This document shows positions 33,203-64,000 of a stretch of DNA of 64,000 bases, in pieces; positions within the stretch are counted from its first letter, which is position 1; each line of letters starts with the position of its first letter. The stretch comes from Antedon mediterranea (taxonomy: Eukaryota; Animalia; Echinodermata). The position numbers were made by a program, and so were the translations under genes. The stretch lies in NCBI RefSeq assembly GCF_964355755.1, contig NC_092672.1, forward strand, positions 8,246,001 to 8,310,000, read 5' to 3'. The notes under the pieces are model-generated. The model saw only the letters and a list, made by a program, of their open reading frames with translations. It did not search any database and was not told the origin of the DNA.

Positions 33203-34004
33203 TAAGTTACAATAAGATATAAACAATATAACTTATAAGTAAGTTAAGATACAATAAGTTAAGTACAACAGGATAGACTGTAAGTTAAGATGCAATAAAA
33301 GCGGTTGAACTAAGAAAAAAAATTGATTAGAAAAAAAGATAAGATAAAGATAAGATGCAATAAGAAAATAATTTTGTAATATATAGTTATATATTTATTT
33401 AATTTTCAAATATAAATAAATTGGTAAAGTAATTTAGGTTGAACATTCAAATAAATAAAAAAAACATGGTATTTAATGACATATTTGTGTAAAAATGATA
33501 AGATAAAATTGGAAAAACAAATGATAATTGAATAGAACAATACTTCTTCCCCCATTTCTTATAAAATGATTTTTAAATTAATTTGGCCAATGGGAAGAAA
33601 CAAAATTTCCAGTCTGAAGTCGGAGATGCTACCTCATTGTGGTAGACTGGTGTCAACATCATTGGTAAAATACGGTACCAATGATGGCTAACAGCATCAC
33701 GCATACAATACACTAAATTAATTTTTAAACACGTTTATTTTATCGTTACTTATAATATATTAGCCGATCGAAACTAATAATATGGAAAGTTTTGGTATGC
33801 CTACCGATAGACGGCGCCCTTTTTTATTTTGTCAAAATTATTCTTCCACATGTGCGAGGCTTGTGTCAAGCTAGCCAACAATAAGCCAGCCAACAATAAG
33901 CCAGCCCACTTTTATTTTTTCCAGCCAACAATAACTATGAAACGCGGTTTGTGCATTCTTTACATTTTCATTGTTACTTATGGCTTTTATGGTATTAGGA
34001 ATTA

Positions 34005-37000
34005 AATATTTGTGAGAAAAACGGCGGATTGTTACTGGGATTCACTTGGTGGGATTATACTAGGGTACCTCGTTAGTCGTCCAGTATAGGTTAGAGTTGG
34101 ACCACTGGTCCCGTTTACTCAGCCCTCATCTTTTAAATTTCAGTATAACTCAATTACGATTGTTAATATATAGTGAAATTTGATATTGTAATTGTGAGAA
34201 AACGGCGGATTGTTCCGGGAAGTCACTTGGTGGGATTATACTAGGGTACCTCCTTAGTCGCCCAGTATAAGTTAGAGTAGGACCACTGGTCCCGTTTACT
34301 CAGCCCTCATCTTTTAAATTTGAATGTAACCCAATTACGATTTTTAAAATATAGTGAAATTTGAAACTGTATCTGTGCAAAAACGGCGGATTGTTCCTGG
34401 GCATCACTTGGCGGGATTATACTAGGGTACCTCCTTAGTCGTCCAGTATAAGTTAGAGTGGGACCACTGGTCCCGTTTACTCAGCCCTCATCTTTTAAAT
34501 CTGAGTGTAACTCAATTACGATTTTAATATTGTTAAATTTGAAACTGTATTTGTGAGAAAATGGCGGATTGTTCCTGGCAGTCACTTGGTGGGATTATAC
34601 TAGGGTACCCCCTTAGTCGTCCAGTATAAGTTAGAGTGGGACCACTAGTCCCGTTTACTCAGCCCTCATCTTTAAATATTGAGTGTAACTCAATCAATTT
34701 TTAAAATATAGTTAAATTTGAAACTGTATTTGTGAGAAAATTGCGGATTGTTCCTGGGAGTCACTTGGTGGGATTATACCAGGGTACCTCCTTAGTCGTC
34801 CAGTATAAGTTAGAGTTGGACCACTGGTCCCGTTTACTCAGCCCTCATCTTTAAAATTTGAGTGTAACTCAATTACGATTAATATTTTAAAATATAGTGA
34901 AATTTGATACTGTATTTGTGAGAAAATGGCGGATTGTTCCTGGGAGTCACTTGGTGGGATTATACTAGGGTACCCCCTTAGTCGTCCAGTATAAGTTAGA
35001 GTGGGACCACTGGTCCCGTTTACTCAGCCCTCATCTTTAAAATTTGAGTGTAACTCATTTACGATTTTTAAAATATAGTGAAATTTGAAACTGTATTTGT
35101 GAGAAAACGGCGGATTGTTCCTGGGAGTCACTTGGTGGGATTATACTAGGTACCTCCTTAGTTGTCCAGTATAAGTTAAAGTGGGACCACTGGTCCCGTT
35201 TACTCAGCCCTCATCTTTAACGTTTGAGTGTAACTCAATTACGATTAATATTTTAAAATATAGTGAAATTTGATACTGTATTAGTGAGAAAATGGAGGAT
35301 TGTTCCTGGGAGTCACTTGGTGGGATTATACTAGGGTACCTCCTTAGTTGTCCAGTTTAAGTTAGAGTGGGACCACTGGTCCCGTTTACTCAGCCCTTAT
35401 CTTTAAAATTTGAGTGTAACTCAATTACGATTAATATTTTAAAATATAGTGAAATTTGATACTGTATTTGTGAGAAAATGGCGTATTGTTCCTGGGAGTC
35501 ACTTGGTGGGATTATACTAGGGTACCCCTTTAGTCGTCCAGTGTAAGATAGAATGGGACCACTGGTCTCGTTTACTCAGCCCTCATCTTTAAAATTTGAG
35601 TGTAACTCATTTACGATTTTTAAAATATAGTGAAATTTGAAACTGTATTTGTGAGAAAACGGCGGATTGTTCCTGAGAGTCACATGGTGGGATTATACTA
35701 GGGTACGTCCTTAGTCGTCCAGTAAAAGTTAGAGTGCGACCACTGGTCCCGTTTACTCAGCCCTCATCTTTTAAATTTGAGTGTAACTCAATTACGATAA
35801 CATTTTTTAAATATAGTGAAAATTGATACTATATTTGTGAGATAATGGCGGATTGTTCCTGGGAGTCACTTGGTGGGATTATACTAGGGTACCTCCTTAG
35901 TTGTCCAGTATAAGTTAGAGTGGGACCACTGGTCCCGTTTACTCAGCCCTCATCTTTAACATTTGAGTGTAACTCAATTACGATTAATATTTTAAAATAT
36001 AGTGAAATTTGATACTGTATTAGTGAGAAAATGGCGGATTGTTCCTGGGAGTCACTTGGTGGGATTATACTAGGGTACCTCCTTAGTTGTCCAGTTTAAG
36101 TTAGAGTGGGACCACTGGTCCCGTTTACTCAGCCCTTATCTTTAAAATTTGAGTGTAACTCAATTACGATTAATATTTTAAAATATAGTGAAATTTGATA
36201 CTGTATTTGTGAGAAAATGGCGGATTGTTCCTGGGAGTCACTTGGTGGGATTAAACTAGGGTACCCCCTCAGTCGTCCAGTATAAGTTAGAATGGGACCA
36301 CTGGTCCCGTTTACTCAGCCCTCATCTTTAAAATTTGAGTGTAACTCATTTACGATTTTTAAAATATAGTGAAATTTGAAACTGTATTTGTGAGAAAACG
36401 GCGGATTGTTCCTGAGAGTCACTTGGTGGGATTATACTAGGGTACACACTAAGTTGTCCAGTATAAGTTAGAGTGGTACCACTGGTCCCGTTTACTCAGC
36501 CCTCATCTTTAAAATTTGAGTGTAACTCATTTACGATTTTTAAAATATAGTGAAATTTGATACTGTATTTGTGAGAAAATGGCGGATTGTTCCTGAGAGT
36601 CACTTGGTGGGATTATACTAGGGAAACTCTTTAATCATCCAGTATAAGTTAGAGTGGGACCACTGGTCCCGTTTACTAAGCCCTCATCTTTTAAATTTGA
36701 GTGTAACTCAATTACGATAACATTTTTAAAATATAGTGAAAATTGATACTGTATTTGTGAGAAAATGGCGGATTGTTCCTGGGAGTCACTTGGTGGGATT
36801 ATACTAAGGTACCTCCTTAGTTGTCCAGTATAAGTTAGAGTGGGACCACTGGTCCCGTTTACTCAGCCCTCATCTTTAACGTTTGAGTGTAACTCAATTA
36901 CGATTAATATTTTAAAATATAGTGAAATTTGATACTGTATTTGTGAGAAAATGGCGGATTTTTCCTGAGAGTCACTTGGTAGGATTATACTAGGGTACCC

Positions 37001-40000
37001 CCTTAGTCGTCCAGTATAAGTTAGAGTGGGACCACTGGTCCCGTTTACTCAGCCCTCATCTTTAAAATTTAAGTGTAACTCAATTACGATTAATATTTTA
37101 AAATATAGTGAAATTTGATACTGTATTTGTGAGAAAATGGCGGATTGTTCCTGGGAGTCACTTGGTGGGATTATACTAGGGTACCCCCTTAGTCGTCCAG
37201 TATAAGTTAGAATGGGACCACTGGTCCCGTTTACTCAGCCCTCATCTTTTAAATTTGAGTGTAACTCATTTACGATTTTTAAAATATAGTGAAATTTGAA
37301 ACTGTATTTGTGAGAAAACGGCGGATTGTTCCTGAGAGTCACTTGGTGGGATTATACTAGGGTACACCCTAAGTCGTCCAGTATAAGTTAGAGTGGGACC
37401 ACTGGTCCCGTTTACTCAGCCCTCATCTTTAAAATTTGAGTGTAACTCATTTACGATTTTTAATATATAGTGAAATTTGATACTGTATTTGTGAGAAAAG
37501 GGCGGATTGTTCCTGAGAGTCACTTGGTGGGATTATACTAGGGAAACTCTTTAATCATCCAGTATAAGTTAGAGTGGGACCACTGGTCCCGTTTACTAAG
37601 CCCTCATCTTTTAAATTTGAGTGTAACTCATTTACGATTTTTAAAATATAGTGAAATTTGAAACTGTATTTGTGAGAAAATGGCGGATTGTTCCTGGGAG
37701 TCACTTGGTGGGATTATACTAGGGTACCCCCTTAGTTGTCTAGTATAAGTTAGAATGGGACCGCTGGTCCCGTTTACTCAGCCCTCTTCTTTAAAATTTG
37801 AGTGTAACTCATTTACGATTTTTAAAATATAGTGAAATTTGATACTGTTATTGTAAGAAAACGGCGGATTGTTCCTGAGAGTCACTTGGTGGGATTATAC
37901 TAGGGTACCTCCTTAGTCGTACAGTAAAAGTTAGAGTGGGACCACTGGTACCGTTTACTCAGCCCTCATCTTTTAAATTTGAGTGTAACTCATTTACGAT
38001 TTTAAAAATATAGTGAAATTTGATACTGTATTTGTGAGAAAATGGCGGATTGTTCCTAGGAGTCACTTGGTGTGATTATACAAGGGTACCTCCTTAGTTG
38101 TCCAGTATAAGTTAGAGTGGGACCACTGGTCCCGTTTACTCAGCCCTCATCTTTAAAATTTGAGTGTAACTCATTTACGATTTTTAAAATATAGTGAAAT
38201 TTGATACTGTATTTGTGAGAAAACGGCGGATTGTTCATGAGAGTCACTTGGTGGGATTATACTAGGGTACCCCCTTAGTCGTCCAGTATAAGTTAGAGTG
38301 GGTCCACTGGTCCCGTTTACTCAGCCATCATCTTTCAAATGTCAGTGTAACTCATTTACGATTTTTAAAATATAGTGAAATTTGATACTGTATTTGTGAG
38401 AAAACGGCGGATTGTTCCTGAGAGTCACTTGGTGGGATTATACTAGGGTGCCTCCTTAGTCGTCCAGTATAAGTTAGAGTGGGACCACTTGTCCCGTTTA
38501 CTCAGCCCTCATCTTTAAAATTTGAGTGTAACTCAATTACGATTAATATTTTAAAATATAGTGAAATTTGATACTGTATTTGTGAGAAAATGGCGGATTG
38601 TTCCTGGGAGTCACTTGGTGGGATTATACTAGGGTACCCCCTTAGTCGTCCAGTATAAGGTAGAATGGCACCACTGGTCCCGTTTACTCAGCCCTCATCT
38701 TTAAAATTTGAGTGTAACTTATTTACGATTTTTAAAATATAGTGAAATTTGAAACTGTATTTTTGAGAAAACGGCGGATTGTTCCTGAGACTCACTTGGT
38801 GGGATTATACTAGGGTACACCCTAAGTTGTCCAGTATAAGTTAGAGTGGGACCACTGGTCCCGTTTACTCAGCCCTCATCTTTAAAATTTGAGTGTAACT
38901 CATTTACGATTTTTAAAATATAGTGAAATTTGATACTGTATTTGTGAGAAAACGGCGGATTGTTCATGAGAGTCACTTGGTGGGATTATACTAGGGTACC
39001 CCCTTAGTCGTCCAGTATAAGTTAGAGTGGGTCCACTGGTCCCGTTTACTCAGCCATCATCTTTCAAATGTCAGTGTAACTCATTTACGATTTTTAAAAT
39101 ATAGTGAAATTTGATACTGTATTTGTGAGAAAACGGCGGATTGTTCCTGAGAGTCACTTGGTGGGATTATACTAGGGTGCCTCCTTAGTCGTCCAGTATA
39201 AGTTAGAGTGGGACCACTTGTCCCGTTTACTCAGCCCTCATCTTTAAAATTTGAGTGTAACTCAATTACGATTAATATTTTAAAATATAGTGAAATTTGA
39301 TACTGTATTTGTGAGAAAATGGCGGATTGTTCCTGGGAGTCACTTGGTGGGATTATACTAGGGTACCCCCTTAGTCGTCCAGTATAAGGTAGAATGGCAC
39401 CACTGGTCCCGTTTACTCAGCCCTCATCTTTAAAATTTGAGTGTAACTTATTTACGATTTTTAAAATATAGTGAAATTTGATACTGTATTTGTGAGAAAA
39501 GGGCGGATTGTTCCTGAGAGTCACTTGGTGGGATTATACTAGGGAAACTCTTTAATCATCCAGTATAAGTTAGAGTGGGACCACTGGTCCCGTTTACTAA
39601 GCCCTCATCTTTTAAATTTGAGTGTAACTCAATTACGATAACATTTTTAAAATATAGTGAAAATTGATACTGTATTTGTGAGAAAATGGCGGATTGTTCC
39701 TGGGAGTCACTTGGTGGGATTATACTAAGGTACCTCCTTAGTTGTCCAGTATAAGTTAGAGTGGGACCACTGGTCCCGTTTACTCAGCCCTCATCTTTAA
39801 CGTTTGAGTGTAACTCAATTACGATTAATATTTTAAAATATAGTGAAATTTGATACTGTATTTGTGATAAAATGGCGGATTGTTCCTGGGAGTCACTTGG
39901 TAGGATTATACTAGGGTACCCCCTTAGTCGTCCAGTATAAGTTAGAGTGGGACCACTTGTCCCGTTTACTCAGCCCTCATCTTAAAAATTTAAGTGTAAC

Positions 40001-43000
40001 TCAATTACGATTAATATTTTAAAATATAGTGAAATTTGATACTGTATTTGTGAGAAAATGGCGGATTGTTCCTGGGATTCACTTGGTGGGATTATACTAG
40101 GGTACACCCTTAGTCGTCCAGTATAAGTTAGAATGGGACCACTGGTCCCGTTTACTCAGCCCTCATCTTTAAAATTTAAGTGTAACTCATTTACGATTTT
40201 TAAAATATAGTGAAATTTGAAACTGTATTTGTGAGAAAACGGCGGATTGTTCCTGAGAGTCACTTGGTGGGATTATACTAGGGTACACCCTAAGTCGTCC
40301 AGTATAAGTTAGAGTGGGACCACTGGTTCCGTTTACTCAGCCCTCATCTTTAAAATTTGAGTGTAACTCATTTACGATTTTTAAAATATAGTGAAATTTG
40401 ATACTGTATTTGTGAGAAAAGGGCGGATTGTTCCTGAGAGTCACATGGTGGGATTATACTAGGGAAACTCTTTAATCATCCAGTATAAGTTAGAGTGGGA
40501 CCACTGGTTCCGTTTACTAAGCCCTCATCTTTTAAATTTGAGTGTAACTCAATTACGATAACATTTTTAAAATATAGTGAAAATTGATACTGTATTTGTG
40601 AGAAAATGGCGGATTGTTCCTGGGAGTCACTTGGTGGGATTATACTAAGGTACCTCCTTAGTTGTCCAGTATAAGTTAGAGTGGGACCACTGGTCCCGTT
40701 TACTCAGCCCTCATCTTTACCGTTTGAGTGTAACTCAATTACGATTAATATTTTAAAATATAGTGAAATTTGATACTGTATTTGTGAGAAAATGGCGGAT
40801 TGTTCCTGGGAGTCACTTGGTAGGATTATACTAGGGTACCCCCTTAGTCGTCCAGTATAAGTTAGAGTGAGACCACTGGTCCCGTTTACTCAGCCCTCAT
40901 CTTTAAAATTTGAGTGTAACTCATTTACGATTTTTAAAATATAGTGAAATTTGAAACTGTATTTGTGAGAAAACGGCGGATTGTTCCTGAGAGTCACTTG
41001 GTGGGATTATACTAGGGTACACCCTAAGTCGTCCAGTATAAGTTAGAGTGGGACCACTGGTCCCGTTTACTCAGCCCTCATCTTTAAAATTTGAGTGTAA
41101 CTCATTTACGATTTTTAAAATATAGTGAAATTTGATACTGTATTTGTGAGAAAAGGGCGGATTGTTCCTGAGAGTCGCATGGTGGGATTATACTAGGGAA
41201 ACTCTTTAATCATCCAGTATAAGTTAGAGTGGGACCACTGGTCCCGTTTACTAAGCCCTCATCTTTTAAATTTGAGTGTAACTCAATTACGATAACATTT
41301 TTAAAATATAGTAAAAATTGATACTGTATTTGTGAGAAAATGGCGGATTGTTCCTGGGAGTCACTTGGTGGGATTATACTAAGGTACCTCCTTAGTTGTC
41401 CAGTATAAGTTAGAGTGGGACCACTGGTCCCGTTTACTCAGCCCTCATCTTTAACGTTTGAGTGTAACTCAATTACGATTAATATTTTAAAATATAGTGA
41501 AATTTGATACTGTATTTGTGAGAAAATGGCGGATTGTTCCTGGGAGTCACTTGGTAGGATTATACTAGTGTACCCCCTTAGTCGTCCAGTATAAGTTAGA
41601 GTGAGACCACTGGTCCCGTTTACTCAGCCCTCATCTTTAAATTTTGAGTGTAACTCATTTACGATTTTTAAAATATAGTGAAATTTGAAACTGTATTTGT
41701 GAGAAAACGGCGGATTGTTCCTGAGAGTCACTTGGTGGGATTATACTAGGGTACACCCTAAGTCGTCCAGTATAAGTTAGAGTGGGACCACTCGTCCCGT
41801 TTACTCAGCCCTCATCTTTAAAATTTGAGTGTAACTCATTTACGATTTTTAAAAAATAGTGAAATTTGATACTGTATTTGTGAGAAAACGGCGGATTGTT
41901 CCTGAGAGTAACTTGGTGGGATTATACTAGGGAACCTCTTTAATCATCCAGTATAAGTTAGAGTGGGACCACTGGTCCCGTTTACTCAGCCCTCATCTTT
42001 AAAATTTGAGTGTAACTCATTTACGATTTTTAAAATAAAGTGAAATTTGAAACTGTATTTGTGAGAAAACGGCGGATTGTTCCTGGAAGTCACTTGGTGG
42101 GATTATACTAGGGTACCTCCTTAGTTGTCCAGTATAAGTTAGAGTGGGACCACTGGTCCCATTTACTCAGCCCTCATCTTTAACGTTTGAGTGTAACTCA
42201 ATTACGATTAATATTTTAAAATATAGTGAAATTTGATACTGTATTTGTGAGAAAATGGCGGATTGTTCCTGGGAGTCACTTGGTGGGATTATACTAGGGC
42301 ACCCCCTTAGTTGTCCAGTATAAGTTAGAATGGGACCACTGGTCCCGTTTACTCAGCCCTCTTCTTTAAATTTTGAGTGTAACTCATTTACGATTTTTAA
42401 AATATAGTGAAATTTGAAACTGTATTTGTGAGAAAATGGCGGATTGTTCCTGGGAGTCACTTGGTGGGATTATACTAGGGTACCCCCTTAGATGTCCAGT
42501 ATAAGTTAGAATGGGACCACTGGTCCCGTTTACTCAGCCCTCTTCTTTAAAATTTGAGTGTAACTCATTTACGATTTTTAAAATATAGTGAAATTTGAAA
42601 CTGTATTTGTGAGAAAACGGCGGATTGTTCCTGGGAGTCACATGGTGGGATTATACTAGGGTACATCCTTAGTCGTCCAGTATAAGTTAGAGTGGGACCA
42701 CTGGTCCCGTTTACTAAGCCCTCATCTTTTAAATTTGAGCGTAACTCAATTACGATAACATTTTTAAAATATAGTGAAAATTGATACTGTATTTGTGAGA
42801 AAATGGCGGATTGTTCCTGGGAGTCACTTGGTGTGATTATACTAAGGTACCTCCTTAGTTGTCCAGTATAAGTTAGAGTGGGACCACTGGTCCCGTTTAC
42901 TCAGCCCTCATCTTTAACCTTTGAGTGTAACTCAATTACGATTAATATTTTAAAATATAGTGAAATTTGATACTGTATTTGTGAGAAAATGGCGGATTGT

Positions 43001-43860
43001 TCCTGGGAGTCACTTGGTAGGATTATACTAGGGTACCCCCTTAGTCGTCCAGTATAAGTTAGAGTGGGACCACTGGTCCCGTTTACTCAGCCCTCATCTT
43101 TAAAATTTGAGTGTAACTCATTTACGATTTTTAAAATATAGTGAAATTTGAAACTGTATTTGTGAGAAAACGGCGGATTGTTCCTGAGAGTCACTTGGTG
43201 GGATTATACTAGGGTACACCCTAAGTTGTCCAGTATAAGTTAGAGTGGGACCACTGGTCCCGTTTACTCAGCCCTCATCTTTAAAATTTGAGTGTAACTC
43301 ATTTACGATTTTTAAAAAATAGTAAAATTTGATACTGTATTTGTGAGAAAACGGCGGATTGTTCCCGAGAGTCACTTGGTGGGATTATACTAGGGAACCT
43401 CTTTAATCATCCAGTATAAGTTAGAGTGGGACCACTGGTCCCGTTTACTCAGCCCTCATCTTTAAAATTTGAGTGTAACTCAATTACGATAAAAATTTTT
43501 AAATATAGTGAAAATTGATACTGTATTTGTGAGAAAATGGCGGATTGTTCCTGGGAGTCACTTGGTGGGATTATACTAGGGTACCTCCTTAGTTGTCCAG
43601 TATAAGTTAGAGTGGGACCACTGGTCCCGTTTACTCAGCCCTCATCTTTTAAATTTGAGTGTAACTCAATTACAATTTTTAAAATATAGTTAAATTTGAA
43701 ACTGTATTTGTGAGAAAACGGCGGATTGTTCCTGGGAGTTAATTGGTGGGATTATACTAGGGTACCTCCTTAGTTGTCCAGTATAAGTTAGAGTAGGACC
43801 ACTGGTCCGTTTACTTAGGCCTCATCTAAAATTTGAGTGGCTCAATTATGATTTTTTAAT
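34005..43860 (+). repeat. Tandem satellite, ~181-186 bp monomer, ~54 copies (left arm)
   Basis: Monomer: ATTTGTGAGAAAAYGGCGGATTGTTCCTGRGAGTCACTTGGTGGGATTATACTAGGGTACC...GGGACCACTGGTCCCGTTTACTCAGCCCTCATC...GAAATTTGATACTGT. Copies are highly homogeneous, with more diverged ones at the edges. Confidence 0.98.
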
Positions 43861-45513
43861 ATAGTTATATAGCACAGTGAAGTTTTTTTTAAATTAAATA
43901 TATTGTTAATCGCAAAAGAATGAATAATTTCTTGGTAATCTAGCATTTTTTGTATACAAGGATCATATAAAATACGTTCCCGGTTATACGCTTAACACGC
44001 TGTGTTTTTTAACACATTTACGGCCGCTATCTTGTTGGATCCCCCTCCTTTTGGAATCACCTTTGAGTCTGAAGTACCCCCTCTAGCCTTCGGCTTATTA
44101 CATCTCTCTGGATGCCACAGATTGTACATTAGGCGGCACCAGATAGATAACTTTGTGAGGCCAGTTTTTACTTTATTTACATAAATTATTCCATTTTCCA
44201 TGAAACAACCCTTATGATTAAAAACAGATACTTCGAGCCGGACCGCAAAATTTAAACCATTTTAAATCAAAATAGAAGGCGTTATACCTATGTTTTTCCA
44301 GAGCCATATATAGCAATATTTTAAGTCAATATGAATATGATTATGAACTGTTTACGTCGTTTTTTTTTTATCTTTTCAGAACCTTCGTATAGAAAGTGAC
44401 CGAATAACATAATGCAGTGCTGCAATACGTTGTTCGTTGGTTAATACACTTGCAATACTAAGCCTGCTTGTTGGTTCGATGGGAAAATAACTATTAGCGA
44501 AAAATAATAATTAGAATGGACACCGTAAACTGAAGTTTCTATCGAAACGATTTGTAGGCCTACAATATGTTATATTATACGTATACTTGTTAAATAAAAG
44601 TTGTATAAAAGAGTCTATTTTGTAAAATGACGTAATATTTTGAAATTCTATGTAATTGTATAAATAAGAGTATCTTATAAAAATATCGATAAATGTTTTA
44701 TAGGTTTTTAATAGAATTTCTAAAGAGTTTTCAACACTTTTAGAAACTTTATATATAAGAAATTATATCAAAAGTCTATAAATTCTTTAGAAATATCTAA
44801 AGATATATCTATAAAATTTCTATAAACTTCTATAATTCTATACACAATCTATAACAGCTCTATTGAAAAGTCTATCGGAATTTTATAGAATATATATAGA
44901 AGATATAATAACTGTATATAAAAAGCTTTAGAAACTCTAAAAAAATTCTAAAGATATTAAATATATATAATTTGTGTATATATAGAATATTTATATAGAA
45001 ATTCTATACACATTTTTTATTTACGGCTAATATCGGACGTTTAAGAGATGGAAAGGAACAAATTTTGGCTTGGATGTGTGATACAGTATAGGTAAAGCCA
45101 GGGAGAAATAACTGTCAGATTTATGTTTATTAGTAGGTAGCAGAAACAAATCTACAGTTTAGACCTTCAAAACATTCATTATTGTCTGAAATCCAATAAT
45201 TGTTTTTTGTTCATCTACTAGCAAAAGACACCTGCCCCAGTGTGGGAGTTGCTTCATAGGGACCATGGTTGCAGTGATTTAATCATAGGTTAAATCCTTC
45301 ACAGAAGAATTCTGTAAATGTATTCATTATATCTCCGAAACCCATCTCAGCTCCTCCTCCCAACCAACATCCACAGACCCTCCTTGAGACAGTTCAAATG
45401 TAATCAATTATAAATCAGAGTAATTTGATATATCATTACCTCTAAATTCCATTATCTCCTAATATATTAGAACTTTTCCCTCCCCCTTCCCACCTGAAAT
45501 GAAACCTTCCTTC

Positions 45514-45622
45514 CTGCGAGTTACAAGAATCTGCGAGTTACAAAACAGATCTGCGAGTTACAAAACAGATATGCGGCAAAATCTGCGAGTTACAACAAAT
45601 CTGTGAGTTACAAAACAAATCT
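45514..45622 (+). repeat. ~20-bp repeat TCTGCGAGTTACAAAACAGA, ~5 copies
   Basis: Directly visible. Confidence 0.8.
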
Positions 45623-50227: not shown

Positions 50228-50900
50228 ATCGATATGAATATTGAATGACGCAATACGAATGAAATGTTTTGAATAAAATGTTTTGAATGAACTGTTTTGA
50301 ATAAAATGTTTTTTAATTCTTGGTAGCTTGACCGCGTACCGGACCTCTGAGCCACGTTAGCTTTTTCCCCTACTAAATGGATCCAAGCCCAGGTCTGTTA
50401 GGATTCGTTGTAAGGATCCATTGATGACAGCGGGTTGAGAGAGGAGAAGAGGGTACCCAGGCTTAAGAGGTTAAGAAAAAAAATCGCGAGCGGGAATGAC
50501 ATACGCCGCCAATAGTTTGACTTTTCAAATTCAATACAACATTTTTCATTCAAAACATTCGTTCAAAACATTTCATTCAAAACATTCAATTCAAAACATT
50601 CAATTCAAAACATTTCATTCAAAACATTTCATTTAAAACATTTCATTTAAAACATTTCATTCAAAACATTCATTTCAAAACATCTCATTCAAAACATTCT
50701 ATTCAAGGCATTCAATTCAAAGAATTTCATTAAAAATATTTCAGTCAAAACATTTCATTCACAACTTTCATTTCAAACATTTCATTTCAAACATTTCATT
50801 CAAAACATTTCATTCAAAACATTTCATTCAAAACATTTCGTTGAAAAGAAAACATTCAATTCAAAGCATTTCATTCAAAAAATTGCATTCATATCGATGC
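50228..50900. repeat. Small foldback-like structure: 14-bp CATTCAAAACATTT array (50545-50885) with a short inverted copy (50257-50312)
   Basis: CATCGATATGAAT (~50228) and ATTCATATCGATG (~50887) form an inverted pair flanking the inverted 14-mer arrays. Confidence 0.65.
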
Positions 50901-51689
50901 AATCAAATGCGAAGCATCCTCGTATCATTGACTGCGGGTATTTTTTAAGATGGACATCCATTAGACAGTGTATACCAGGATCGGAAAACAATCCTATATG
51001 CATGGGAAAATCGTTGAACCTAAATTCGTTTTAATTGTAAATAAATAATTATCTAACTCAATTTAATTAGTAAACAGGGTTACAGCAGGTGGTTAAAATC
51101 AGTACCGAAGGTATAAACCAACTTTATAATACCATCGAGTAAACATTCTAGAAATAACGCGCGATTTGCCGAATTTTGCCCTTACGTAAATTTATATATA
51201 AAAGATGATGTGTTTATGTCTAACTTAAACATTTGTATACTTAGTAGTATTCCAATTCATATTCTACAGCAAAGAACTTCCTAATTTTACTTTAGATTTT
51301 TAAAAAGCCTACACTATTTATTTATTAACTGATTACATTATACGATTTTGAAATCAATCTCTCCCCACCCCCCCCCCCCCCCCACACCCACTCTTTCTAT
51401 CCTCCGTTTGACAGGTTCATACAATTCTTAGTCTTCCCTATTATGAAAACATATATAGTTAACTGTGCTAATTTAGCAAATCATTTTAATTTTTTGCCAT
51501 AGAAGTTTTAAAAAAATATATACAGTTATTACAAAATAGACTACACATTTTCAGTACATACGTCGATATAAGACCGGAGAATATTGTAAAATGTACCGCC
51601 CATCTAGTCCCCTCCTCACACACAATTTGATTTACAATACAATTGACACCAAAAGAAGCAGCTTGTTAATTTGATTACCAATCACAGTT

Positions 51690-51911
51690 GTCTAAAGCTG
51701 TAGTTGTCCTAAGGAGTAGTTGTAGGCCTACGTTGGGCAGTTGTCTCAGGGGATAGTTGTCCTAATGGGTAGCTAGAGGGTTTTTGTCCTATGGAGTAAT
51801 GGTCCTAGGGGATAGTTGTCCTGAGAGGGGGGTTGTTGTCCTAGAAGGGTGATTGTTCAGGAGGTAATTGTCCGGGTGGTAGTTGTCCAGGGAGTAGTTG
51901 TCCTAGACCCG
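51690..51911 (+). repeat. Degenerate ~15-bp GGTAGTTGTCCT repeats ending in TGTCCTAGACCCG; probable single MITE arm
   Basis: About 12 copies of (A/T)GTTGTCC/AATTGTCC units. Confidence 0.6.
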
Positions 51912-52900
51912 TCTTCAATATTTGTGTGTATAATGACTAAAAGAACCATAAAGTCATTTGAGGTGTCTAAAAAACTCAGATCTAGAAAATTCAGATCTCA
52001 GATATATCTGAGTTTTCTAGACCGTGATTCATTGCATTAATAATACTGTGGTAAATCTGCCTAAAAACCTTATATATTTCAGGTAATCATGATTGTGAGC
52101 ACTATTTGTTTAATCATCCTAATTTTGCTCATAATTAAACAAGGCTTACTCACAAACGCTAGAGTGTATTTTGTTTTATTCATTAACTCTCCTTAGTTTT
52201 ATATATTTTTTTATTATTTGTATTGTCTTAAAACTAACTAGACCACGATTAAATGTGTGATTGTGTAACATGTATTTCATGTTATTTATTTTTAAAATGC
52301 AAAGGAAAAACTAGCCTGAAACAGTTAAGAAAAATCTGCGATTTTTGATATTATTATTTAATAAAGTAATATATGTGGTATTTTGATTATGCAATACAAT
52401 AATTGTTATTCGCTTTCATTCATCCAATTTTATTCCTAATCCCAGCTTGGTTGTTAACGATAACAAACAATTTTATCGCACAGATACACATTATTTTTAG
52501 ATATCCATCGCAAATTCTATTTAAGATATCAATTTGTTGATACAGTAATATAATTTAAAAAGGCAGAGGAAAACTCTAAAATAAATTGTATTATTGAATT
52601 TGTATTCAAAGTTGTAGCTTGTAAATAAATAATTATTATATCATTACCATCATCTTGAATGCAAATATTATGAGTCTAAAAATTACTTTGATTGTTGAAA
52701 CTGCATTCCTCTAAGTTGTAAAGTGAATACAATTATGTTTCATTATCTCGAGTATAAATGGCCCTTCCCATCAAATTCCCATATAAAACATTAACTAATT
52801 ATGTTAATTTTGTTGTCAGGCTGATGACTCTCATCGTCGCCGCCGTCGGCGTTGTGATGGTATCGTAAAAACGAAACGGAAACAAGTTGACTATTTAAAC

Positions 52901-55900
52901 ATGAAGGCGTCTTTCTCAAGACATATTACATCAACTACAGATATTACAAGTGCGAGCAGTGAGTCAGTATGGGGTACAATTTTAAAAGAAATAAAATGGT
53001 TTAATACTCAAAACAACAGAAAGTACTTGAAAGTAATATGGCGATCAAACAGAGGCGGTGTACGCGAATACACGGAGCGAAATTGGGAAAATCCTGAAAC
53101 CAATAGTGCACTATATCAACTAGATGTCCAAGAAGAAGAACAGGAATATCAGCAAAATGGAGAAATAGAAGTCCAAACACCTTTGCAGACAGAATTTCGT
53201 CGAAGCAAAAGAAATAGGAAGGTTAAACGATTTTCTGAATGTTGGGAGACCGACACGTTTTGCATATGCCGGCGGGCTTGGAGAGGAGATGCAATTCGTC
53301 CAGCTATACAATGTGACCAGTGCTTGAAATGGTATCATTTCGATTGCATAAACATGCCAGAATATGCTACTGTAGATTTGCTGCATTGCAGATTCTATTG
53401 TGGATTTACAGGGTGCAGTAGCAGACAAAAGATGATCATAAGTGATGTAATTTCTACCTCAAAAAAATCAGAAAGTGACGTAGATGAACACTTAAGTAGA
53501 CCATCTCGCAACACCGATGTCGACAGGGATGAAGTCGAAAATGAATACATGACGTCATTCATGAATGTCCCATTAAAAAGTAAAGAAGAGAGCGATGCCG
53601 ATGAACACTTAAGTAGAGCATCTCGCTATACCGATGGCGACAGGGATAAGGTAGAAAATGAAAGCAAGACGTCATTCATGAATGTCCCATTAAAAAGTGA
53701 AGAAGAGAGCGACGCAGATGAACATTTAAGTACAGCATCTCGCAATACGGATGTCGACAGGGATGAGGTAGAAAATGAGGGAAAGACGTCATTCATGAAT
53801 GTCCCATTAAAAAGTGAAGAAGAGAGCGACGCAGATGAACATTTAAGTACAGCATCTCGAAATACGGATGTCGACAGGGATGAAGTCGAAAATGAAGGCA
53901 AGACGTCATTCATGAATTTCCCATTAAAAAGTAAAGAAGAGAGCGACGCAGATGAACACTTCAGTACAGCATCTCGCTATACCGATGTCGACAGGGATGA
54001 AATCGAAAATGAAGGCAAGACGTCATTCATGAATGTCCCATTAAAAAGTAAAGAAGAGAGCGACGCAGATGAACACTTAAGTAGAGCATCTCGCAATACG
54101 GATGTCGACAGGGATGAGGTAGAAAATGAAGGAAAGACGTCATTCATGAATTTCCCATTAAAAAGTGAAGAAGAGAGCGACGCAGATGAACATTTAAGTA
54201 TAGCATATCGATATACCGATGGCGACAGGGATGAAATCGAAAATGAAGGCAAGACGTCATTCATGAATGTCCCATTAAAAAGTGAAGAAGAGAGCGACGC
54301 AGATGAACACGTCAGTACAGCATCTCGCTATACCGATGTCGACAGGGATGAAATCGAAAATGAAGGCAAGACGTCATTCATGAATGTCCCATTAAAAAGT
54401 AAAGAAGAGAGTGACGCAGATGAGCACTTCAGTACAGCATCTCGCTATACCGATGTCGACAGGGATGAAATCGAAAATGAAGACAAGACGTCATTCATGA
54501 ATGTCCCATTAAAAAGTAAAGAAGAGAGCGACGCAGATGAACACTTCAGTACAGCATCTTGCAATACCGATGTCGACAGGGATGAAGTCGAAAATGAAGA
54601 CATGACGTCATTCATGAGGAATGTACCAATAGAAAAGGCTACTATAGGCAAATGTCTTGGCGAAGAAATCGGAGAACAAGTAATCAAAGAATTCCAAATT
54701 CCAAGAACTGCACATTTTAAGATAACAAAAGAAAAATGGAGCGAAATATGTAAACACCTAAGAGGAAAGTACTTTGAAAAGGGGCAATGGCACGAACAAT
54801 TTATTAAAGGTTTAAAAACATCCAACCCGTACTGCGTCCTTATGATAAGACGACATCGTGTAAGCATACGTAAACGAAGAGCAACTAGTAAACCACTTCT
54901 CACTGTAGATCTGTACTGCAAGTTTGACCACTGCCCCATCACTGCCAAACTGGAACTGGATACGAATTTTAAGGCAAATGTGAGGTACAGTCATGAAATA
55001 GTAATGCATCATTTAGGGGAGCAACATGCTAGACCTATCCGTGGTAGCGAAAGAGAAACATTAAAAGAAGCATTCAGACATGGCATAACTCCTTTAAACG
55101 AATACCTAAAAAGACTTGGTGAAAAAGACGCGACTCACGTAGTTTTGGCAGGCAATGCTGATGATCTTGGTACTAGTAAGCAAACACTTCGACAGGTATC
55201 TCATGAGGCAAATACTTCATGCATACTTCACAGTGACGAGCTTACAAGCCTACACCAAATGAAAAAAAAAATGGAGTCAGAGAGTCCAAACAAAAAAGTG
55301 AAAGGCTTTATACAGTTCATATCTTTATCCCCTACTGTTGTATTTTACTGGACCGAGGCCGGTATTCGCCTATGGCATGATTTGTCCCAGAAAGATGCGG
55401 CAGTAATAGATGCGACAGGCAATGTTGTCCGTTTGTCAGAAGAAAGAAAGAAGTTTTTGTACTATGAGGTATGCATGAGGAGCCCGATAGAAGGAGAATC
55501 TCCGATACCAATAATGGGTATGCTAAGTACAACTCATACAGCTACAATAATACGTTTCTGGATATCAGAATTCAGAAGATGCGAAAAGCTACTTTTTGGA
55601 TATCAGGGTGTTTCTATTCCTCGTCAAATAAATATGGACAGAGCCATGGCCTTTATAATGGCAATCCTATCGGAGTTTAATAACGAGACTGTTAAGGAAT
55701 TCCTGGATCGTTGTTGGCGGATTGTCACTGGAAATGCATTAGATAATGACATCGAGCGTAAAACTGTCCCTCACGCATGTACTTCACATGTAATGAAAGA
55801 TGTTAAGAAATCATGCAAGAAGCATTATGCGGGAAATATGGACTATGGATTATACTGCTTTAGCACAATTCTTAATGCTGACAAATTGGTAGAGGCTGAA

Positions 55901-58712
55901 CAAGCTCTGTTTGATATGGCTGTTGTGTTATATGGGAAAAAACTGACAGTGGAGGTAAAAGAGGCAAGTGAAAGGATATTTGACAGGATCAATTCTCTCT
56001 CGAAGCAAGTTTCTCAAGAGGTGAACAGAGATGTACGTGGGTCGGCTAATGTGACTGTGGAAGAAGATACAGTATCCGGAGTTAACAAGACAGAAGAAGA
56101 GTTTCTTCATTTTGCCACAGGTATTTGTTATTAATTGTAATATACATTCTTAATGTTCTACTGTGGATCCATTGTAAAAGATGGTAAACATCCGTTACAA
56201 TAACCGATAGTTTTATTTTGTTTTTATTGTGTTCGTTTTCATTACTTATATAATTATTATTATAAACACCATCCCTTGTACTAATTGTACGTTGCGACAT
56301 TCTTTGCCTTTAATGACATCTAACATCTTTAACAAATGATAAAAGGAAATTATATAAATCTTCCTAAAAATATTGTCTTGATGATGATTATTGCATGATT
56401 GCATGTTTTATTTTTATTTACGCAATAGCTATAAAAACAAAAACCTTTTTTTCTGTTGTTTAGGTACTTGCTTTGCAAGGTGGGCAAAGCAGACAATTAA
56501 AGGTGCAAGAGAAACTGTAACAGAGGGAGACGAAGCTATTGAAAACAATGCTCGATTTGGACCTAAATTTATGGAGGATATTCAAAAGCTGCTCCTACCA
56601 ACGCTTCCACTTTGGTCCTGTTTAATGCTTGGAAATCTACAGCGGCATGGAAGTTCAACCCCGTACAAAAAATACAAATTTGTGGAAAAAAGATACCCCA
56701 GTAAAACAACAAGTGTACAAGAAGGAAGATTCAATCAATTGAAAACATACATTCTTCAGAACAAATCCCACAGCCGTGTCGATGTGTTCTCGGAAAAATT
56801 GAAAGACACAACAAAGGCGCTGCAGACTTTAGCACTAAAAAACGCTTTGAAAAAGAGGACCAGAAAGGTTAGAGGAAAGAAGACAGTCCTCGTGGAAGAG
56901 AAATGGAATAAGATGCGCAAACAGCCCGACACATTAAGAGACAAAAAATACGGAAAATATCAACAGCGGCCAACAAAACCTTTCAAAGTTACGAAATCGG
57001 ACAAGAAAAGGGCAAGTGAAACGGTGATTGAGGGTAAGCAGAAGAAAAATAAACCCAATAAGGACAACACTTCTTACCTAATTCATGATGTGGATGTTGA
57101 AGTTGGACCAACAGGAACGAAAAAGAAAGAAGAATGTAGGCCTACATCACGTGTACATCATTCACTGAACCTTGAACCAAAATTCATTCCACTTCTAAAC
57201 TTGCACAACAACTGCTGGTTCAATGCCAACGTGCAAGCACTGGTATCGACAGCATCTTTAGACATTCTGTTGAAAGTACCTGACAGTACTTGGAAAAAAC
57301 CCCAAGAAATGAAATTGTTCGAGTTCCTTAAGATCTACAAGACCAACAAATCAATTAAATATAACAATCTTGAACCATTGTTGCGTGTACTTTCGGCTGA
57401 CGGACTTCAGTATGGACAACAAAATGATGCTCATGAATTTATTTCACGCCACATAGGCGTAATGATGTCCACTATTCGGCTTAACAAAATTGAAATTGAA
57501 GAAAATGTAACATGCAACAACTGTGATGACACCAAATCAAATGTTCAAACAATCACGGAGATCTTTGTTCCTGTACTTAACGATTATGATGCAGTCAACA
57601 TGCAAAACGAAGTTTTGAAACTGACAGATCCTACAGAACATGAAGCAATATGTGAAAATTGTGGATGTTTGGGCATGTTTTTAACATGCAAGAAAATGAA
57701 AACTGTTCCAAATGTGTTATTGATTGTAATGCAAAGAAACCAAAGCAGAGGGAAGATGCTGGCGGCTATAGAACCCACAAAAGAGTTATTAATTACACAC
57801 ACGGGTACTGACATTAAGTGTAGGTTCAAATTAAAGTCTGTTATCGTTCACAGAGGTGATACATGTAACACTGGTCACTATGTTACAATGGTACCGGATC
57901 ACTCCAGTGATATGATTAGTTGGGTACTCTGCGATGACCACATCATTGAAAACGCCCGACCACATGATATAGCTGCAGTTTACGACCAAAGCTACATAAT
58001 GTACTACGAGAAAGCAGAAGGAATTGATGAAACTGTCGGCTGTCAATCAGACCAAGAAAAGATGAATACTTCTAAAAGTAACACTGAAGTTATGGAAGCA
58101 ATCAAACGTAACTGTGAAAGTAAACCAAATGAAATAATGCAGAAAATAAACAGAATTGAAATTAGATATGCTGACGTTACAACCCTACTTATCAACAACT
58201 GGCTAAACGACGTCATAGTCAATACATATCTCTGGCTTGTACATACAAATTCAAAACAGCCTGGAAGTATAAACAAGGTGTATCCCTTTCCTACACAATG
58301 GCACCAAAAAGTCACAGGGAGAGGAGAGACATCACTAAGTTCATGGACGAGAAACACGAATCTGCAAAATTTCGACTGGCTGTTATTTCCAATTAGCCAG
58401 AGTGCACATTGGTTTCTCATCGGAATTAACCTCAGGCATCGTACAGTATCGACATTCGATTCATTACAAGGGGTACGAACACGTGAAATGAACTTAGCTC
58501 TGAAAGTAGTAAATGAGGTTATGGAAAAAAGGAGTCCGTTTACAATAAAGGTTATATCTACACCACGACAGCACAACATGGACGACTGTGGGGTGTATTT
58601 GTGCTATTTTGCAAACTACTTAAGCACGGTAGAGGAAGTCGTAGAAATACCAGATATTGATGCGGAAGAATACAGATACAATATGATTCTTGAACTGTAT
58701 AAAGGCTGTTAA
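52901..58712 (+). CDS. Spliced ~1,822-aa NOF/Mutator-like transposase fusion: PHD finger + 10x39-aa acidic repeats + Zn-finger DNA-binding domain + DDE core + USP (C19) + Ulp1/SENP (C48); exons 52901-56120 and 56464-58712
   Basis: A phase-1 intron at 56121-56463 (ACAG|GTATTT...TTTAG|GT) joins the 1077-aa and 773-aa ORFs in frame. PHD: CICRR..IQCDQCLKWYHFDC..FYC..C. Transposase: VIDATG, INMDRAMA, HACTSH (CxxH), TTSVQEGRFNQLK. USP: LLNLHNNCWFNANVQAL, QQNDAHEF, VIVHRGDTCNTGHYV, WVLCDD. Ulp1: WLNDVIVN, AHWFLI, FDSL, QHNMDDCGVY. The frame is open upstream to an acceptor at 52819, so further 5' exons are possible. Confidence 0.88.
53465..54630 (+). repeat. 117-bp coding tandem repeat x10 (SxEESDADEHxSxASRxTDVDRDExENEGKTSFMNVPLK)
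   Basis: Directly visible in DNA and protein; all copies are in frame. Confidence 0.95.
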
Positions 58713-59629
58713 CAATGCCGTACCATCCCTTATAAGTAAGGTTGACAAAGTTTCACTTGATATTCTTGTTGTTTGGAAGAGAATTCAGATGTTCTTTAAT
58801 ATATTTTTATATAAAAGTGATGTGTTAGATGTGACAAATGTAAGCGTATTTCTTAACATACATTTTTCGTTATGCAAACATTCTAATTTTAATTACAAAG
58901 TGGTACATATTTAGTTGCAAAATCAAAGAACAATTACTTAATTTTAATCACTTAATGCACATTTACCAAAAATACAAGGCAACCATAATTATTATTTACA
59001 AAATGATTTTATAAAGTGTATTTTTGCGATACATTATTATTTTTTTTTTCTTTTAATTCATTACTCTCTTATTTTTGAGAGAGTATTATCGTGTTTCTTC
59101 TTATTTGTTTAATAGTTACGTTACCTTTATCTCTTAATTTTGTATTATGTACCGTATGTGATATACTTTTCAAAGTGAAACTAGTTTGTGTACACATTTT
59201 TACTCCCGTGTGTTGCATAATACATACAATAACTTAAAGTAGGCCTATTGTATGTGACATGATTTTCCCTTAGTATTAAGTGATAATGAATATAGGGTTT
59301 ACCTTCTGTTAACTGAAGGTACATGATTTTCGGAAATTATGTAGGCCTAAACTGCTGGTACTAAAAACGATTTTTTTTTCAATATGTTACTTCAATAAAG
59401 ACATTTACAAAACTTGAAGTAAATAAATGTGTTCAATCTCTTATTTTGTCTCTATCCATCTTAGACCAGTAGTTGGAGTCTATTTATACGGAACGACTAG
59501 GTAGTGGACGATAAATGATACATTTTGTTCTACCACTGAAATCGGAGGTTTTCTCACAAATAAAAACGCTCTAACCTATACTGAACGACTAAGTAAACAC
59601 GCATAGTATAGTATAATCCCACCAAGTGA

Positions 59630-62600
59630 GTAAACGGGACCAGTGGTCGCACTCTAACTTATACTGGACGACTAAGGAGGTACCCTAGTATAATCCCACC
59701 AAGTGACTCTCAGGAACAATCCGCCATTTTCTCACAAATACAGTATCAAATTTCACTATATTTTAAAAATCGTAAATGAGTTACACTCAAATTTTAAAGA
59801 TGAGGGCTGAGTAAACGGGACCAGTGGTCCCACTCTAACTTATACTGGACAACTAAGGAGGTACCCTTGTATAATCCCACCAAGTGACTCCCAGGAACAA
59901 TCCGCCATTTTCTTACAAATACAGTATCAAATTTCACTATATTTTTTAAATCGTAAATGAGTTACACTCAAATTTAAAAGATGAGGGCTGAGTAAACGGT
60001 ACCAGTGGTCTCACTCTAACTTATACTGTACGACTAAGGAGGTACCCTAGTATAATCCCACCAAGTGACTCTCAGGAACAATCCGCCGTTTTCTCACAAA
60101 TACAGTTTCAAATTTCACTATATTTTAAAAATCGTAAATGAGTTACACTCAAATTTTAAAGATGAGGGCTGAGTAAACGGAACCAGTGGTCCCACTCTAA
60201 CTTATACTGGACGACTAAGGGGGTACCCTAGTATAATCCCACCAAGTGACTGCCAGGAACAATCTGCCATTTTCTCACAAATACAGTATCAAATTTCACT
60301 ATATTTTAAAATATTAATCGTAATTGAGTTACACTCAAATTTTAAAGATAAGGGCTGAGTAAACGGGACCAGTAGTCCCACTCTAACTTAAACTGGACAA
60401 CTAAGGAGGTACCCTAGTATAATCCCACCAAGTGATTCCCGGGAACAATCCGCCATTTTCTCACAAATACAGTATCAAATTTCACTATATTTTAAAATAT
60501 TAATCGTAATTGAGTTACACTCAAACGTTAAAGATGAGGGCTGAGTAAACGGGACCAGTGGTCTCACTCTAACTTCTACTGGACAACTAAAGAGGTACCC
60601 TAGTATAATCCCACCAAGTGACTCCCAGGAACAATCCGCCATTTTCTCACAAATACAGTATCAATTTTCACTATATTTTAAATTTTTTTATCGTAATTGA
60701 GTTACACTCAAATTTAAAAGATGAGGGCTGAGTAAACGGAACCAGTGGTCGCACTCTAACTTATACTGGACGACTAAGGACGTACCTTAGTATAATCCCA
60801 CCATGTGACTCCCAGGAACAATCCGCCGTTTTCTCACAAATACAGTATCTAATTTCACTATATTTTTAAAATCGTAAATGAGTTACACTCAAATTTAAAA
60901 GATGAGGGCTGAGTAAACGGGACCAGTGGTCTCACTCTAACTTATACTGGACGACTAAGGAGGTACCCTAGTATAATCCCACCAAGTGACTCCCAGGAAC
61001 AATCCGCCATTTTCTCACAAATACAGTATCAAATTTTACTATATTTTTTAAATCGTAATTGAGTTACACTCAAATTTAAAAGATGAGGGCTGAGTAAACG
61101 GGACAAGTGGTCCCACTCTAACTTATACTGGACGACTAAGGGGGTACCCTAGTATAATCCCACCAAGTGACTCCCAGGAACAATCCGCCATTTTCTCACA
61201 AATACAGTATCAAATTTCACTATATTTTAAAATATTAACCGTAATTGAGTTACACTCAAATTTAAAAGATGAGGCCTGAGTAAACGGAACCAGTGGTCGC
61301 ACTCTAACTTATACTGGACGACTAAGGACGTACCTTAGTATAATCCCACCATGTAACTCCCAGGAACAATCCGCCGTTTTCTCACAAATACAGTATCTAA
61401 TTTCACTATATTTTTAAAATCGTAAATGAGTTACACTCAAATTTTAAAGATGAGGGCTGAGTAAACGGGACCAGTGGTCCCACTCTAACTTATACTGGAC
61501 GACTTAGGGTGTACCCTAGTATAATCCCACCAAGTGACTCTCAGGAACAATCCGCCGTTTTCTCACAAATACAGTTTCAAATTTCACTATATTTTAAAAA
61601 TCGTAAATGAGTTACACTCAAATGTTAAAGATGAGGGCTGAGTAAACGGGACCAGTGGTCCCATTCTAACTTATACTGGACGACTAAGGGGGTACCCTAG
61701 TATAATCCCACCAAGTGACTCCCAGAAACAATCCGCCATTTTCTCACAAATACAGTATCAAATTTCACTATATTTTAAAATATTAATCGTAATTGAGTTA
61801 CACTTAAATTTTAAAGATGAGGGCTGAGTAAACGGGACCAGTGGTCCCACTCTAACTTATACTGGACGACTAAGGGGGTACCCTAGTATAATCCTACCAA
61901 GTGACTCCCAGGAACAATCCGCCATTTTCTCACAAATACAGTATCAAATTTCACTATATTTTAAAATATTAATCGTAATTGAGTTACACTCAAACGTTAA
62001 AGATGAGGGCTGAGTAAACGGGACCAGTGGTCCCACTCTAACTTATACTGGACAACTAAGGAGGTACCTTAGTATAATCCCACCAAGTGACTCCCAGGAA
62101 CAATCCGCCATTTTCTCACAAATACAGTATCAATTTTCACTATATTTTAAAAATGTTATCGTAATTGAGTTACACTAAAATTTAAAAGATGAGGGCTTAG
62201 TAAACGGGACCAGTGGTCCCACTCTAACTTATACTGGATGATTAAAAAGTTTCCCTAGTATAATCCCACCAAGTGACTCTCAGGAACAATCCGCCCTTTT
62301 CTCACAAATACAGTATCAAATTTCACTATATTTTAAAAATCGTAAATGAGATACACTCAAATTTTAAAGATGAGGGCTGAGTAAACGGGACCAGTGGTCC
62401 CATTCTAACTTATACTGGACGACTAAGGGGGTACCCTAGTATAATCCCACCAAGTGACTCCCAGGAACAATCCGCCATTTTCTCACAAATACAGTATCAA
62501 ATTTCACTATATTTTAAATTATTAATCGTAATTGAGTTACACTCAAATTTTAAAGATGAGGGCTGAGTAAACGGGGCAAGTGGTCCCACTCTAACTTATA

Positions 62601-64000
62601 CTGGACGACTAAGGAGGCACCCTAGTATAATCCCACCAAGTGACTCTCAGGAACAATCCGCCGTTTTCTCACAAATACAGTATCAAATTTCACTATATTT
62701 TAAAAATCGTAAATGAGTTACACTGAAATTTGAAAGATGATGGCTGAGTAAACGGGACCAGTGGACCCACTCTAACTTATACTGGACGACTAAGGGGGTA
62801 CCCTAGTATAATCCCACCAAGTGACTCTCATGAACAATCCGCCGTTTTCTCACAAATACAGTATCAAATTTCACTATATTTTAAAAATCGTAAATGAGTT
62901 ACACTCAAATCTTAAAGATGAGGGCTGAGTAAACGGGACCAGTGGTCCCACTCTAACTTATACTGGACAACTAAGGAGGTACCCTTGTATAATCCCACCA
63001 AGTGACTCCCAGGAACAATCCGCCATTTTCTCACAAATACAGTATCAAATTTCACTATATTTTTAAAATCGTAAATGAGTTACACTCAAATTTTAAAGAT
63101 GAGGGCTGAGTAAACGGTACCAGTGGTCCCACTCTAACTTCTACTGTACGACTAAAGAGGTACCCTAGTATAATCCCACCAAGTGACTCTCAGGAACAAT
63201 CCGCCGTTTTCTTACAATAACAGTATCAAATTTCACTATATTTTAAAAATCGTAAATGAGTTACACTCAAATTTAAAAGATGAGGGCTGAGTAAACGGGA
63301 CCAGTGGTCCCACTCTAACTTATACTGGACGACTAAGGAGGTACCCTAGTATAATCCCACCAAGTGACTCCCAGGAACAATCCGCCATTTTTTCACAAAT
63401 ACAGTATCCAATTTCACTATACTTTAAAAATCGTAAATGAGTTACACTCAAATTTTAAAGATGAGGGCTGAGTAAACGGAACCAGTGGTCCCACTCTAAC
63501 TTATACTGGACGACTAAGGGGGTACCCTAGTATAATCCCACCAAGTGACTGCCAGGAACAATCCGCCATTTTCTCACAAATACAGTATCAAATTTCACTA
63601 TATTTTAAAATATTAATCGTAATTGAGTTACACTCAAATTTTAAAGATAAGGGCTGAGTAAACGGGACCAGTGGTCCCACTCTAACTTAAACTGGACAAC
63701 TAAGGAGGTACCCTAGTATAATCCCACCAAGTGACTCCCGGGAACAATCCGCCATTTTCTCACAAATACAGTATCAAATTTCACTATATTTTAAAATATT
63801 AATCGTAATTGAGTTACACTCAAACGTTAAAGATGAGGGCTGAGTAAACGGGACCAGTGGTCCCACTCTAAATTTACCTGGACGACTAAGGGGGTACCCT
63901 AGTATAATCCCACCAAGTGACTCCCAGGAACAATCCGCCATTTTCTCACAAATACAGTATCAATTTTCACTATATTTTAAATTTTTTTATCGTAATTGAG
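59630..64000 (-). repeat. Same satellite in reverse orientation, >=24 copies (right arm, truncated by the window)
   Basis: Reverse complement of the left-arm monomer (GAGTAAACGGGACCAGTGGTCCCACTCTAAC...AATCCGCCATTTTCTCACAAAT). Degenerate partial units lie at 59480-59630. Confidence 0.98.

Follow-up and report, generated by a model that had tools for sequence, protein, structure and literature searches.

The DNA analysed here is a stretch of 64,000 nucleotides from Antedon mediterranea (NCBI RefSeq assembly GCF_964355755.1, contig NC_092672.1, positions 8,246,001 to 8,310,000 of the forward strand), which we call the window and number from its first letter. Its right-hand part holds two satellite arrays in opposite orientation that enclose a single long gene encoding a putative transposase, a layout that an earlier note on this DNA had read as a giant foldback transposon. 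Tandem Repeats Finder placed the left array on the plus strand at 34007-43865 (181-bp period, 53.9 copies, 91% matches) and the right array, with the same 181-bp period, at 59627-63981 (23.8 copies), from where it continues past the window end. The earlier note's count of about 54 tandem plus-strand units of 181-186 bp, and its inverted array running from 59.6 kb to the window end, were both borne out. The right array is an inverted copy of the left, the best inverted alignment extending over 4,365 bp at 94.8%. Measured from a terminus at position 33859, the element comprises a left arm of 10,007 bp, an interior of 15,761 bp and a visible right arm of 4,374 bp. The right arm is cut by the window end, and the visible total of 30,142 bp is a lower bound on the size of the element. 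Arms of about 10 kb had been proposed for both sides; this holds for the left arm, while only 4,374 bp of the right can be seen.

The left satellite arm (34007-43865, plus strand) consists of about 54 units of 181 or 186 bp, each with a 15-bp palindrome, and the right arm (59627-64000, minus strand) of at least 24 units, with a degenerate partial unit at its inner edge (about 59540-59626). Units of 181 bp account for 28 of 53 on the left and 13 of 23 on the right, and units of 186 bp for 22 of 53 and 9 of 23, respectively. Units of the left arm differed from one another by 12.35 changes on average, those of the right by 11.34, and units from opposite arms by 11.89; a permutation test on the 53 left and 23 right units revealed no differentiation between the two sides (p=0.82). 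For 13 of the 23 right units the nearest unit lay in the left arm. Furthermore, ordered runs of 6, 4 and 4 units matched across the arms with 1-4 differences per unit, while shuffling the unit order gave a longest cross-arm run of 3 or fewer in 1000 of 1000 trials. Both arms behave as one repeat family. The left arm also contains internal duplications, including an exact repeat of 657 bp. The longest exact match between the arms measures 261 bp, which speaks against one arm having been copied from the other during assembly.

Evidence for the left end came from contigs of public sequencing runs, five of which contain the gene or part of it, four of them from one sample. In all three runs of sample S1 that bear on the flank (X1, X2 and X3), the single-copy flanking contig stops at 33858. 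The link from flank to element has about half the depth of the flank itself (134.8 versus 288.2 in X1; 26 versus 48.8 in X2), and in both runs that could be followed, in a narrow view (X1 and X2), a contig departs from 33858 and continues for at least 255 letters with a different sequence, the start of which has no match within the window. In X1, contigs converge on the left end with depths of 290, 480, 2200 and 12357 at 33855, 33856, 33857 and 33859, and an unrelated flank is also joined at 33859 in the public contigs. A further run, X5, perhaps derived from RNA (share 0.07), lacks contigs over 33720-33842 and bears on neither the empty site nor expression. A contig covering the terminus and the first satellite unit has a depth of 1632.5 in X2, where single-copy sequence has about 49, and a contig over the junction of terminus and array was found in the second sample too. 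From this contig structure we infer that 33859 is a terminus that occurs at many sites, that the insertion studied here is present on one haplotype only, and that the branch at 33858 represents the empty site. An empty-site allele, for which the earlier note had proposed a search, is indicated by the half-depth link and the contig leaving 33858, and the left boundary given there as 33869 has to be moved ten bases further left.

The terminus itself (33859-34006, plus strand, 148 bp), whose 33858/33859 breakpoint is placed by contig branching, the loose end of the empty site and the other flanks, opens with a 13-bp hairpin motif (5-bp arms and a 3-bp loop) and carries three 12-bp subterminal repeats at 33873, 33888 and 33923. 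No second copy of it was found within the window, and it has no 8-mer in common with the satellite unit. Contig depths do not amount to a copy number, but when added up they hint that there are tens of termini, and the ratio of units to termini would suit arms as long as these. Two further features of the termini were observed. The dinucleotide AG (33857-33858) appears to precede termini at a higher rate than expected from base composition (a depth of 2200 out of 12357 in X1, a rough, depth-based figure), a possible target preference. A variant terminus, in which a similar first dozen bases are joined straight to 33974, occurs in contigs of all four runs and is probably a deleted subfamily common to both samples.

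The gene between the arrays is predicted from two long frames joined by a phase-consistent GT-AG intron, and the single enclosed gene described earlier was thus recovered as one spliced frame. Predicted exons 2 and 3 total 5,550 nt, or 1,849 codons, without an internal stop. Exon 2 (52820-56120, plus strand) encodes a PHD finger (about 53260-53400), about ten 39-amino-acid repeats (53470-54617, a coding 117-bp repeat), a Cys/His-rich region and the first part of a DDE core, with aspartates at 55409 and 55637 and a CxxH motif at 55778-55789. Following the predicted phase-1 intron (56121-56463; the splice sites leave the joined frame open), exon 3 (56464-58712) contributes a tryptophan (about 56613), the catalytic glutamate (56721), a USP/UCH domain and a ULP1/C48 domain. 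A candidate short first coding exon at 46797-46826 (plus strand) offers an ATG, a basic peptide and a phase-0 GT donor; a possible alternative start codon is the ATG at 52901. Pfam matches for the gene were PHD (PF00628, 3.5e-5, above the cut-off), UCH (1.7e-20) and Peptidase_C48 (9.8e-19), and the catalytic Cys and His motifs are present in both protease domains. None of these three domains had been mentioned in the earlier note, whose description of one long gene with DDE/CxxH motifs was otherwise confirmed.

The DDE triad was assigned from conservation: all 12 aligned sequences share D864, D940 and E1187, and 11 have H990 of the CxxH motif, the first position of that motif being C in nine and D in three; the tryptophan is found in eight. 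The unspliced homologues P0004, P0005 and P0048 align over the predicted intron junction, and P0048 has PHD, repeats, core, USP and ULP1 in the same order in one frame. A profile of the core retrieved 3,386 clusters at E<=0.001. Among 24 long homologues, chosen from 150 listed, USP was found in 12, ULP1 in 11, both in nine and a PHD-type domain in six. For one homologue, from Clytia, the sole annotation is ubiquitinyl hydrolase, and another homologue carries a Macro domain (entries P0148/P0207 and P0157). No relatives were detected among 71 candidate stretches of viral contigs, and metagenome contigs yielded three loci of 1.7-3.0 kb, too short for arms. Among the matches listed, no homologue was named Rehavkus or NOF. 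A quick tree of 36 hand-picked rows included no reference Rehavkus or NOF sequence and was therefore not used for classification.

A fold model was made from the relative P0066 (35% identical over 428 amino acids, pLDDT 88.5). Compared with known structures, this model matched the P element (4.9e-4), ISCth4 (8.7e-4), RAG and Hermes transposases, weakly and consistently, and to that extent supports a DDE transposase without separating superfamilies. Language-model (Atlas) neighbours of P0066 were mostly MULE clusters, at up to 0.94. The Mutator-type motifs reported earlier stood up in the conserved DDE/CxxH/W core. A sequence search of solved structures returned nothing under E=0.37. The best structural match to the transposase core was an uncharacterised bracovirus protein in BFVD (O92526, E=7.9e-11), which suggests, as far as predicted structures go, that the transposase family has entered a polydnavirus genome.

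Rehavkus is a Repbase group that is sister to, or part of, Mutator/MULE, and Drosophila FB-NOF has one open reading frame (ORF) between inverted arms containing repeats. The element resembles FB-NOF in placing a single ORF between repeat-bearing inverted arms, and differs from it, with NOF taken by description only, in its 181/186-bp arm units and its protein of about 1,850 amino acids with PHD and two proteases. The DATG core is shared by distant homologues that are about 1,060-1,100 amino acids long, one of them named from a thrips. Rehavkus, in particular Tribolium Rehavkus-3_TC and the TfSat06 Rehavkus-like element, provides the closest systems. As published, Rehavkus elements have one ORF, a PHD finger, a 9-bp target site duplication (TSD), a minisatellite at the C-terminal end before the 3' terminal inverted repeat (TIR), and long inverted termini with tandem repeats; their hosts are given as arthropods and annelids (PMC6446971). 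The element studied here has the DDE triad with (C/D)xxH and W of Mutator/MULE transposases, long inverted termini with subterminal tandem repeats (judged from the arms seen within the window), and a single ORF with a PHD finger (one open frame, given the predicted splicing). Compared by published description only, the element works like Rehavkus and shares its single ORF with a PHD finger and its long, repeat-bearing inverted termini; the best label is a Rehavkus-like Mutator foldback element.

Three differences from Rehavkus are apparent. The six elements listed in the supplement of PMC6446971 measure 4.9-18.5 kb, and the present one at least 30.1 kb. The protein here has USP and ULP1 domains, neither of which is named in the Rehavkus descriptions consulted (PMC6446971 and others). 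Finally, the coding 117-bp minisatellite here precedes the DDE core, and it is the satellite arm itself that precedes the right end. Among other systems, Muta1, a foldback MULE of Aedes aegypti (3.2 kb, 145-bp TIR, 504-amino-acid protein), likewise has a palindromic terminal motif, 12-bp subterminal repeats and the (C/D)xxH, W and DDE residues, and its description includes neither satellite arms nor proteases (PMC5499845). Phantom/Tm1 elements also place foldback-like arms around a Mutator-type transposase; they are defined by Pfam FLYWCH and MULE domains (PMC3169594), a signature that is absent here, FLYWCH having no match in the window proteins or the 10 homologues scanned. Tetris of Drosophila virilis has tandem units of about 220 bp in TIRs that expand into satellite arrays of up to 66 copies; the relevant account found no transposase-coding copy, whereas the gene is intact here (PMC4079207). 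Arthropod MULEs in a 2026 survey span 1.4-10 kb (PMC13359780).

We consider it likely that the locus contains a single, recently inserted cut-and-paste foldback transposon, Mutator-related and Rehavkus-like, of at least 30 kb. This reading follows from the inverted arrays around an intact gene together with a left end found next to many flanks and absent from the other haplotype. The earlier proposal of one foldback-type, Mutator-related element with satellite arms is accordingly upheld by the shared runs of variant units, the many-flank terminus, the heterozygous empty site and the transposase core. Several observations weigh against it. The arrangement of a gene between arms is known from this locus alone, and sample S1 is possibly the assembly's own source, in which case its contigs give no independent support. 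The right arm runs to the window end, with the right terminus and TSD beyond it. The arms form an inexact mirror, the best register aligning the inner end of the right arm with 42169, not 43865, and unique DNA just inside the arms shows no inverted similarity between the two sides. At the level of the protein, the proposed comparison with the Pfam MULE profile PF10551 gave no match in any of 7 window proteins or in homologue sets of 10, 24 and 44. The fold matches of P0066 are weak (best E 4.9e-4, TM about 0.2-0.3, the P element just above ISCth4), and the top Atlas matches share 165 features, where fewer than 170 falls short of what is typical of one family; this level is typical of distant relatives.

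The inexact register of the arms, the position of the right end outside the window, the abundance of termini of this family and the nested inserts already present in the interior would also fit a composite locus, in which the arms are real termini of two separate family elements, or of one nested in another, and the insertion at 33858 ends elsewhere. We regard this as improbable: about 0.9 kb separates the end of the intact gene from the right arm, the two arrays are turned towards one another and have degenerate inner edges, and a single element is simpler and fits the Rehavkus layouts as published. Somewhat less remote, and still unlikely in our view, is an old, immobile element whose arms expanded in place, the heterozygosity stemming from a long-standing polymorphism, or from an allele produced by deletion or excision, and not from recent movement of 30 kb. 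About 12 changes separate units of 181-186 bp, the left arm holds internal duplications such as the exact 657-bp repeat, nested inserts have accumulated, and the authors of the Tetris study suggest that large arrays may block transposition (PMC4079207). An immobile relic accords poorly, however, with a clean branch precisely at the terminus, with near-identical termini at high depth, and with 5.5 kb of coding sequence that has neither stop nor frameshift and retains its catalytic residues. Long arrays are hard to assemble, and the layout might in principle be an ordinary satellite with a local inversion, or a misassembly, around an unrelated transposase. Such an artefact appears very improbable, and for the left end it is largely refuted, since the array there adjoins a defined 148-bp terminus that is multi-copy, lies next to many flanks and has an empty allele at this site; the limit of 261 bp on exact matches between the arms argues against it as well.

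If the locus is indeed a single transposon, a mechanism can be proposed by analogy with Muta1, whose transposase binds a palindromic terminal motif and shows higher binding and excision with more subterminal repeats (PMC5499845). By this analogy, binding of the transposase to the short palindromic motif at the terminus would be followed by loading further along the repeats, whereupon both ends would be cut and the element inserted with a long target duplication (8-10 bp). With each jump, both satellite arrays would move along to another location. Judging by the duplications inside the left arm and the runs common to both sides, the arms probably grew by unequal exchange or slippage, and exchange between them may keep them alike. 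More speculatively, a function in chromatin or protein stability is predicted for the PHD, deubiquitinase-type and SUMO-protease-type domains, which might counter silencing or stabilise the protein. A bolder version of this reading, which we put forward tentatively and at somewhat less than even chance, is that the element is an autonomous cut-and-paste transposon, still mobile and about 30-36 kb long (at least two thirds larger than the biggest listed Rehavkus), and that a nucleosome-length satellite family of this genome resides and travels chiefly in its 10-kb arms. The histone reader, deubiquitinase and SUMO protease would then constitute a built-in anti-silencing kit, common to a large unannotated clade of animal transposases.

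Satellite arms as such are already in print. In Tribolium, Rehavkus termini comprise satellites of up to 50 monomers each and the inverted termini of a Rehavkus-like element are sometimes longer than 11 kb (bioRxiv 10.1101/2024.12.02.626372); one Rehavkus terminal repeat makes an array of 80.5 kb (the same preprint and PMC10218199), and the repeat unit of Rehavkus-1_TC is 164 bp (PMC10218199). The seeding of satellites by transposition, which the earlier note had raised, is thus already published for Tribolium Rehavkus and Drosophila Tetris. What sets this copy apart is that it measures at least 30.1 kb, retains an intact gene with two protease domains and is polymorphic as an insertion. Our literature search found no giant Mutator transposon with satellite TIRs and nothing joining NOF with Rehavkus, and for a transposase with ULP1, UCH and PHD together it returned only Helitron work; Repbase Reports and bioRxiv supplements may describe larger elements or proteases. 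Most of what is known of how foldback transposons relate to satellite DNA comes from elements that are small or non-coding, and this copy is a useful extreme variant of a foldback transposon with satellite arms. As the gene is intact, one arm reaches 10 kb and the empty allele occurs within a single individual, it becomes testable whether long arms move as a unit or grow after insertion. In addition, the transposase family is large and invisible to the Pfam MULE profile, so that annotators can be expected to mislabel it as ubiquitin hydrolase and to separate the arms from it as satellite.

The 15.8-kb interior, treated earlier as a single gene, contains that gene and also two small nested inverted-repeat elements. 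One is a non-coding element of 2 kb (47367-49371) with tandem 19-23-bp subunits in asymmetric arms; it is itself foldback-like, with a possible TA target. The second insert (50081-51968) has 56-bp direct repeats around inverted 14-bp arrays.

Outside the element, a cationic amino-acid transporter-like gene lies at 438-2097 in two overlapping frames (438-1373 and 1342-2097), which suggests a frameshift or a very short intron; its identity to any match is at most 49%. A 290-codon open frame at 13939-14811 (plus strand) has no Pfam match, and 23301-24407 (minus strand) probably represents the final exon of a host gene resembling SH3BP5 (PF05276). An intronless cyclin-like ORF (31910-33202, within a stretch at 31824-33703 that ends about 150 bp from the insertion site) matches Cyclin_N at E=0.0027, below the cut-off. 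An inverted, broken copy lies 25 kb upstream (5059-7080, 80% over 2 kb) and contig depths suggest several further copies in the genome; this ORF may be an amplified retrocopy or the cargo of another element.

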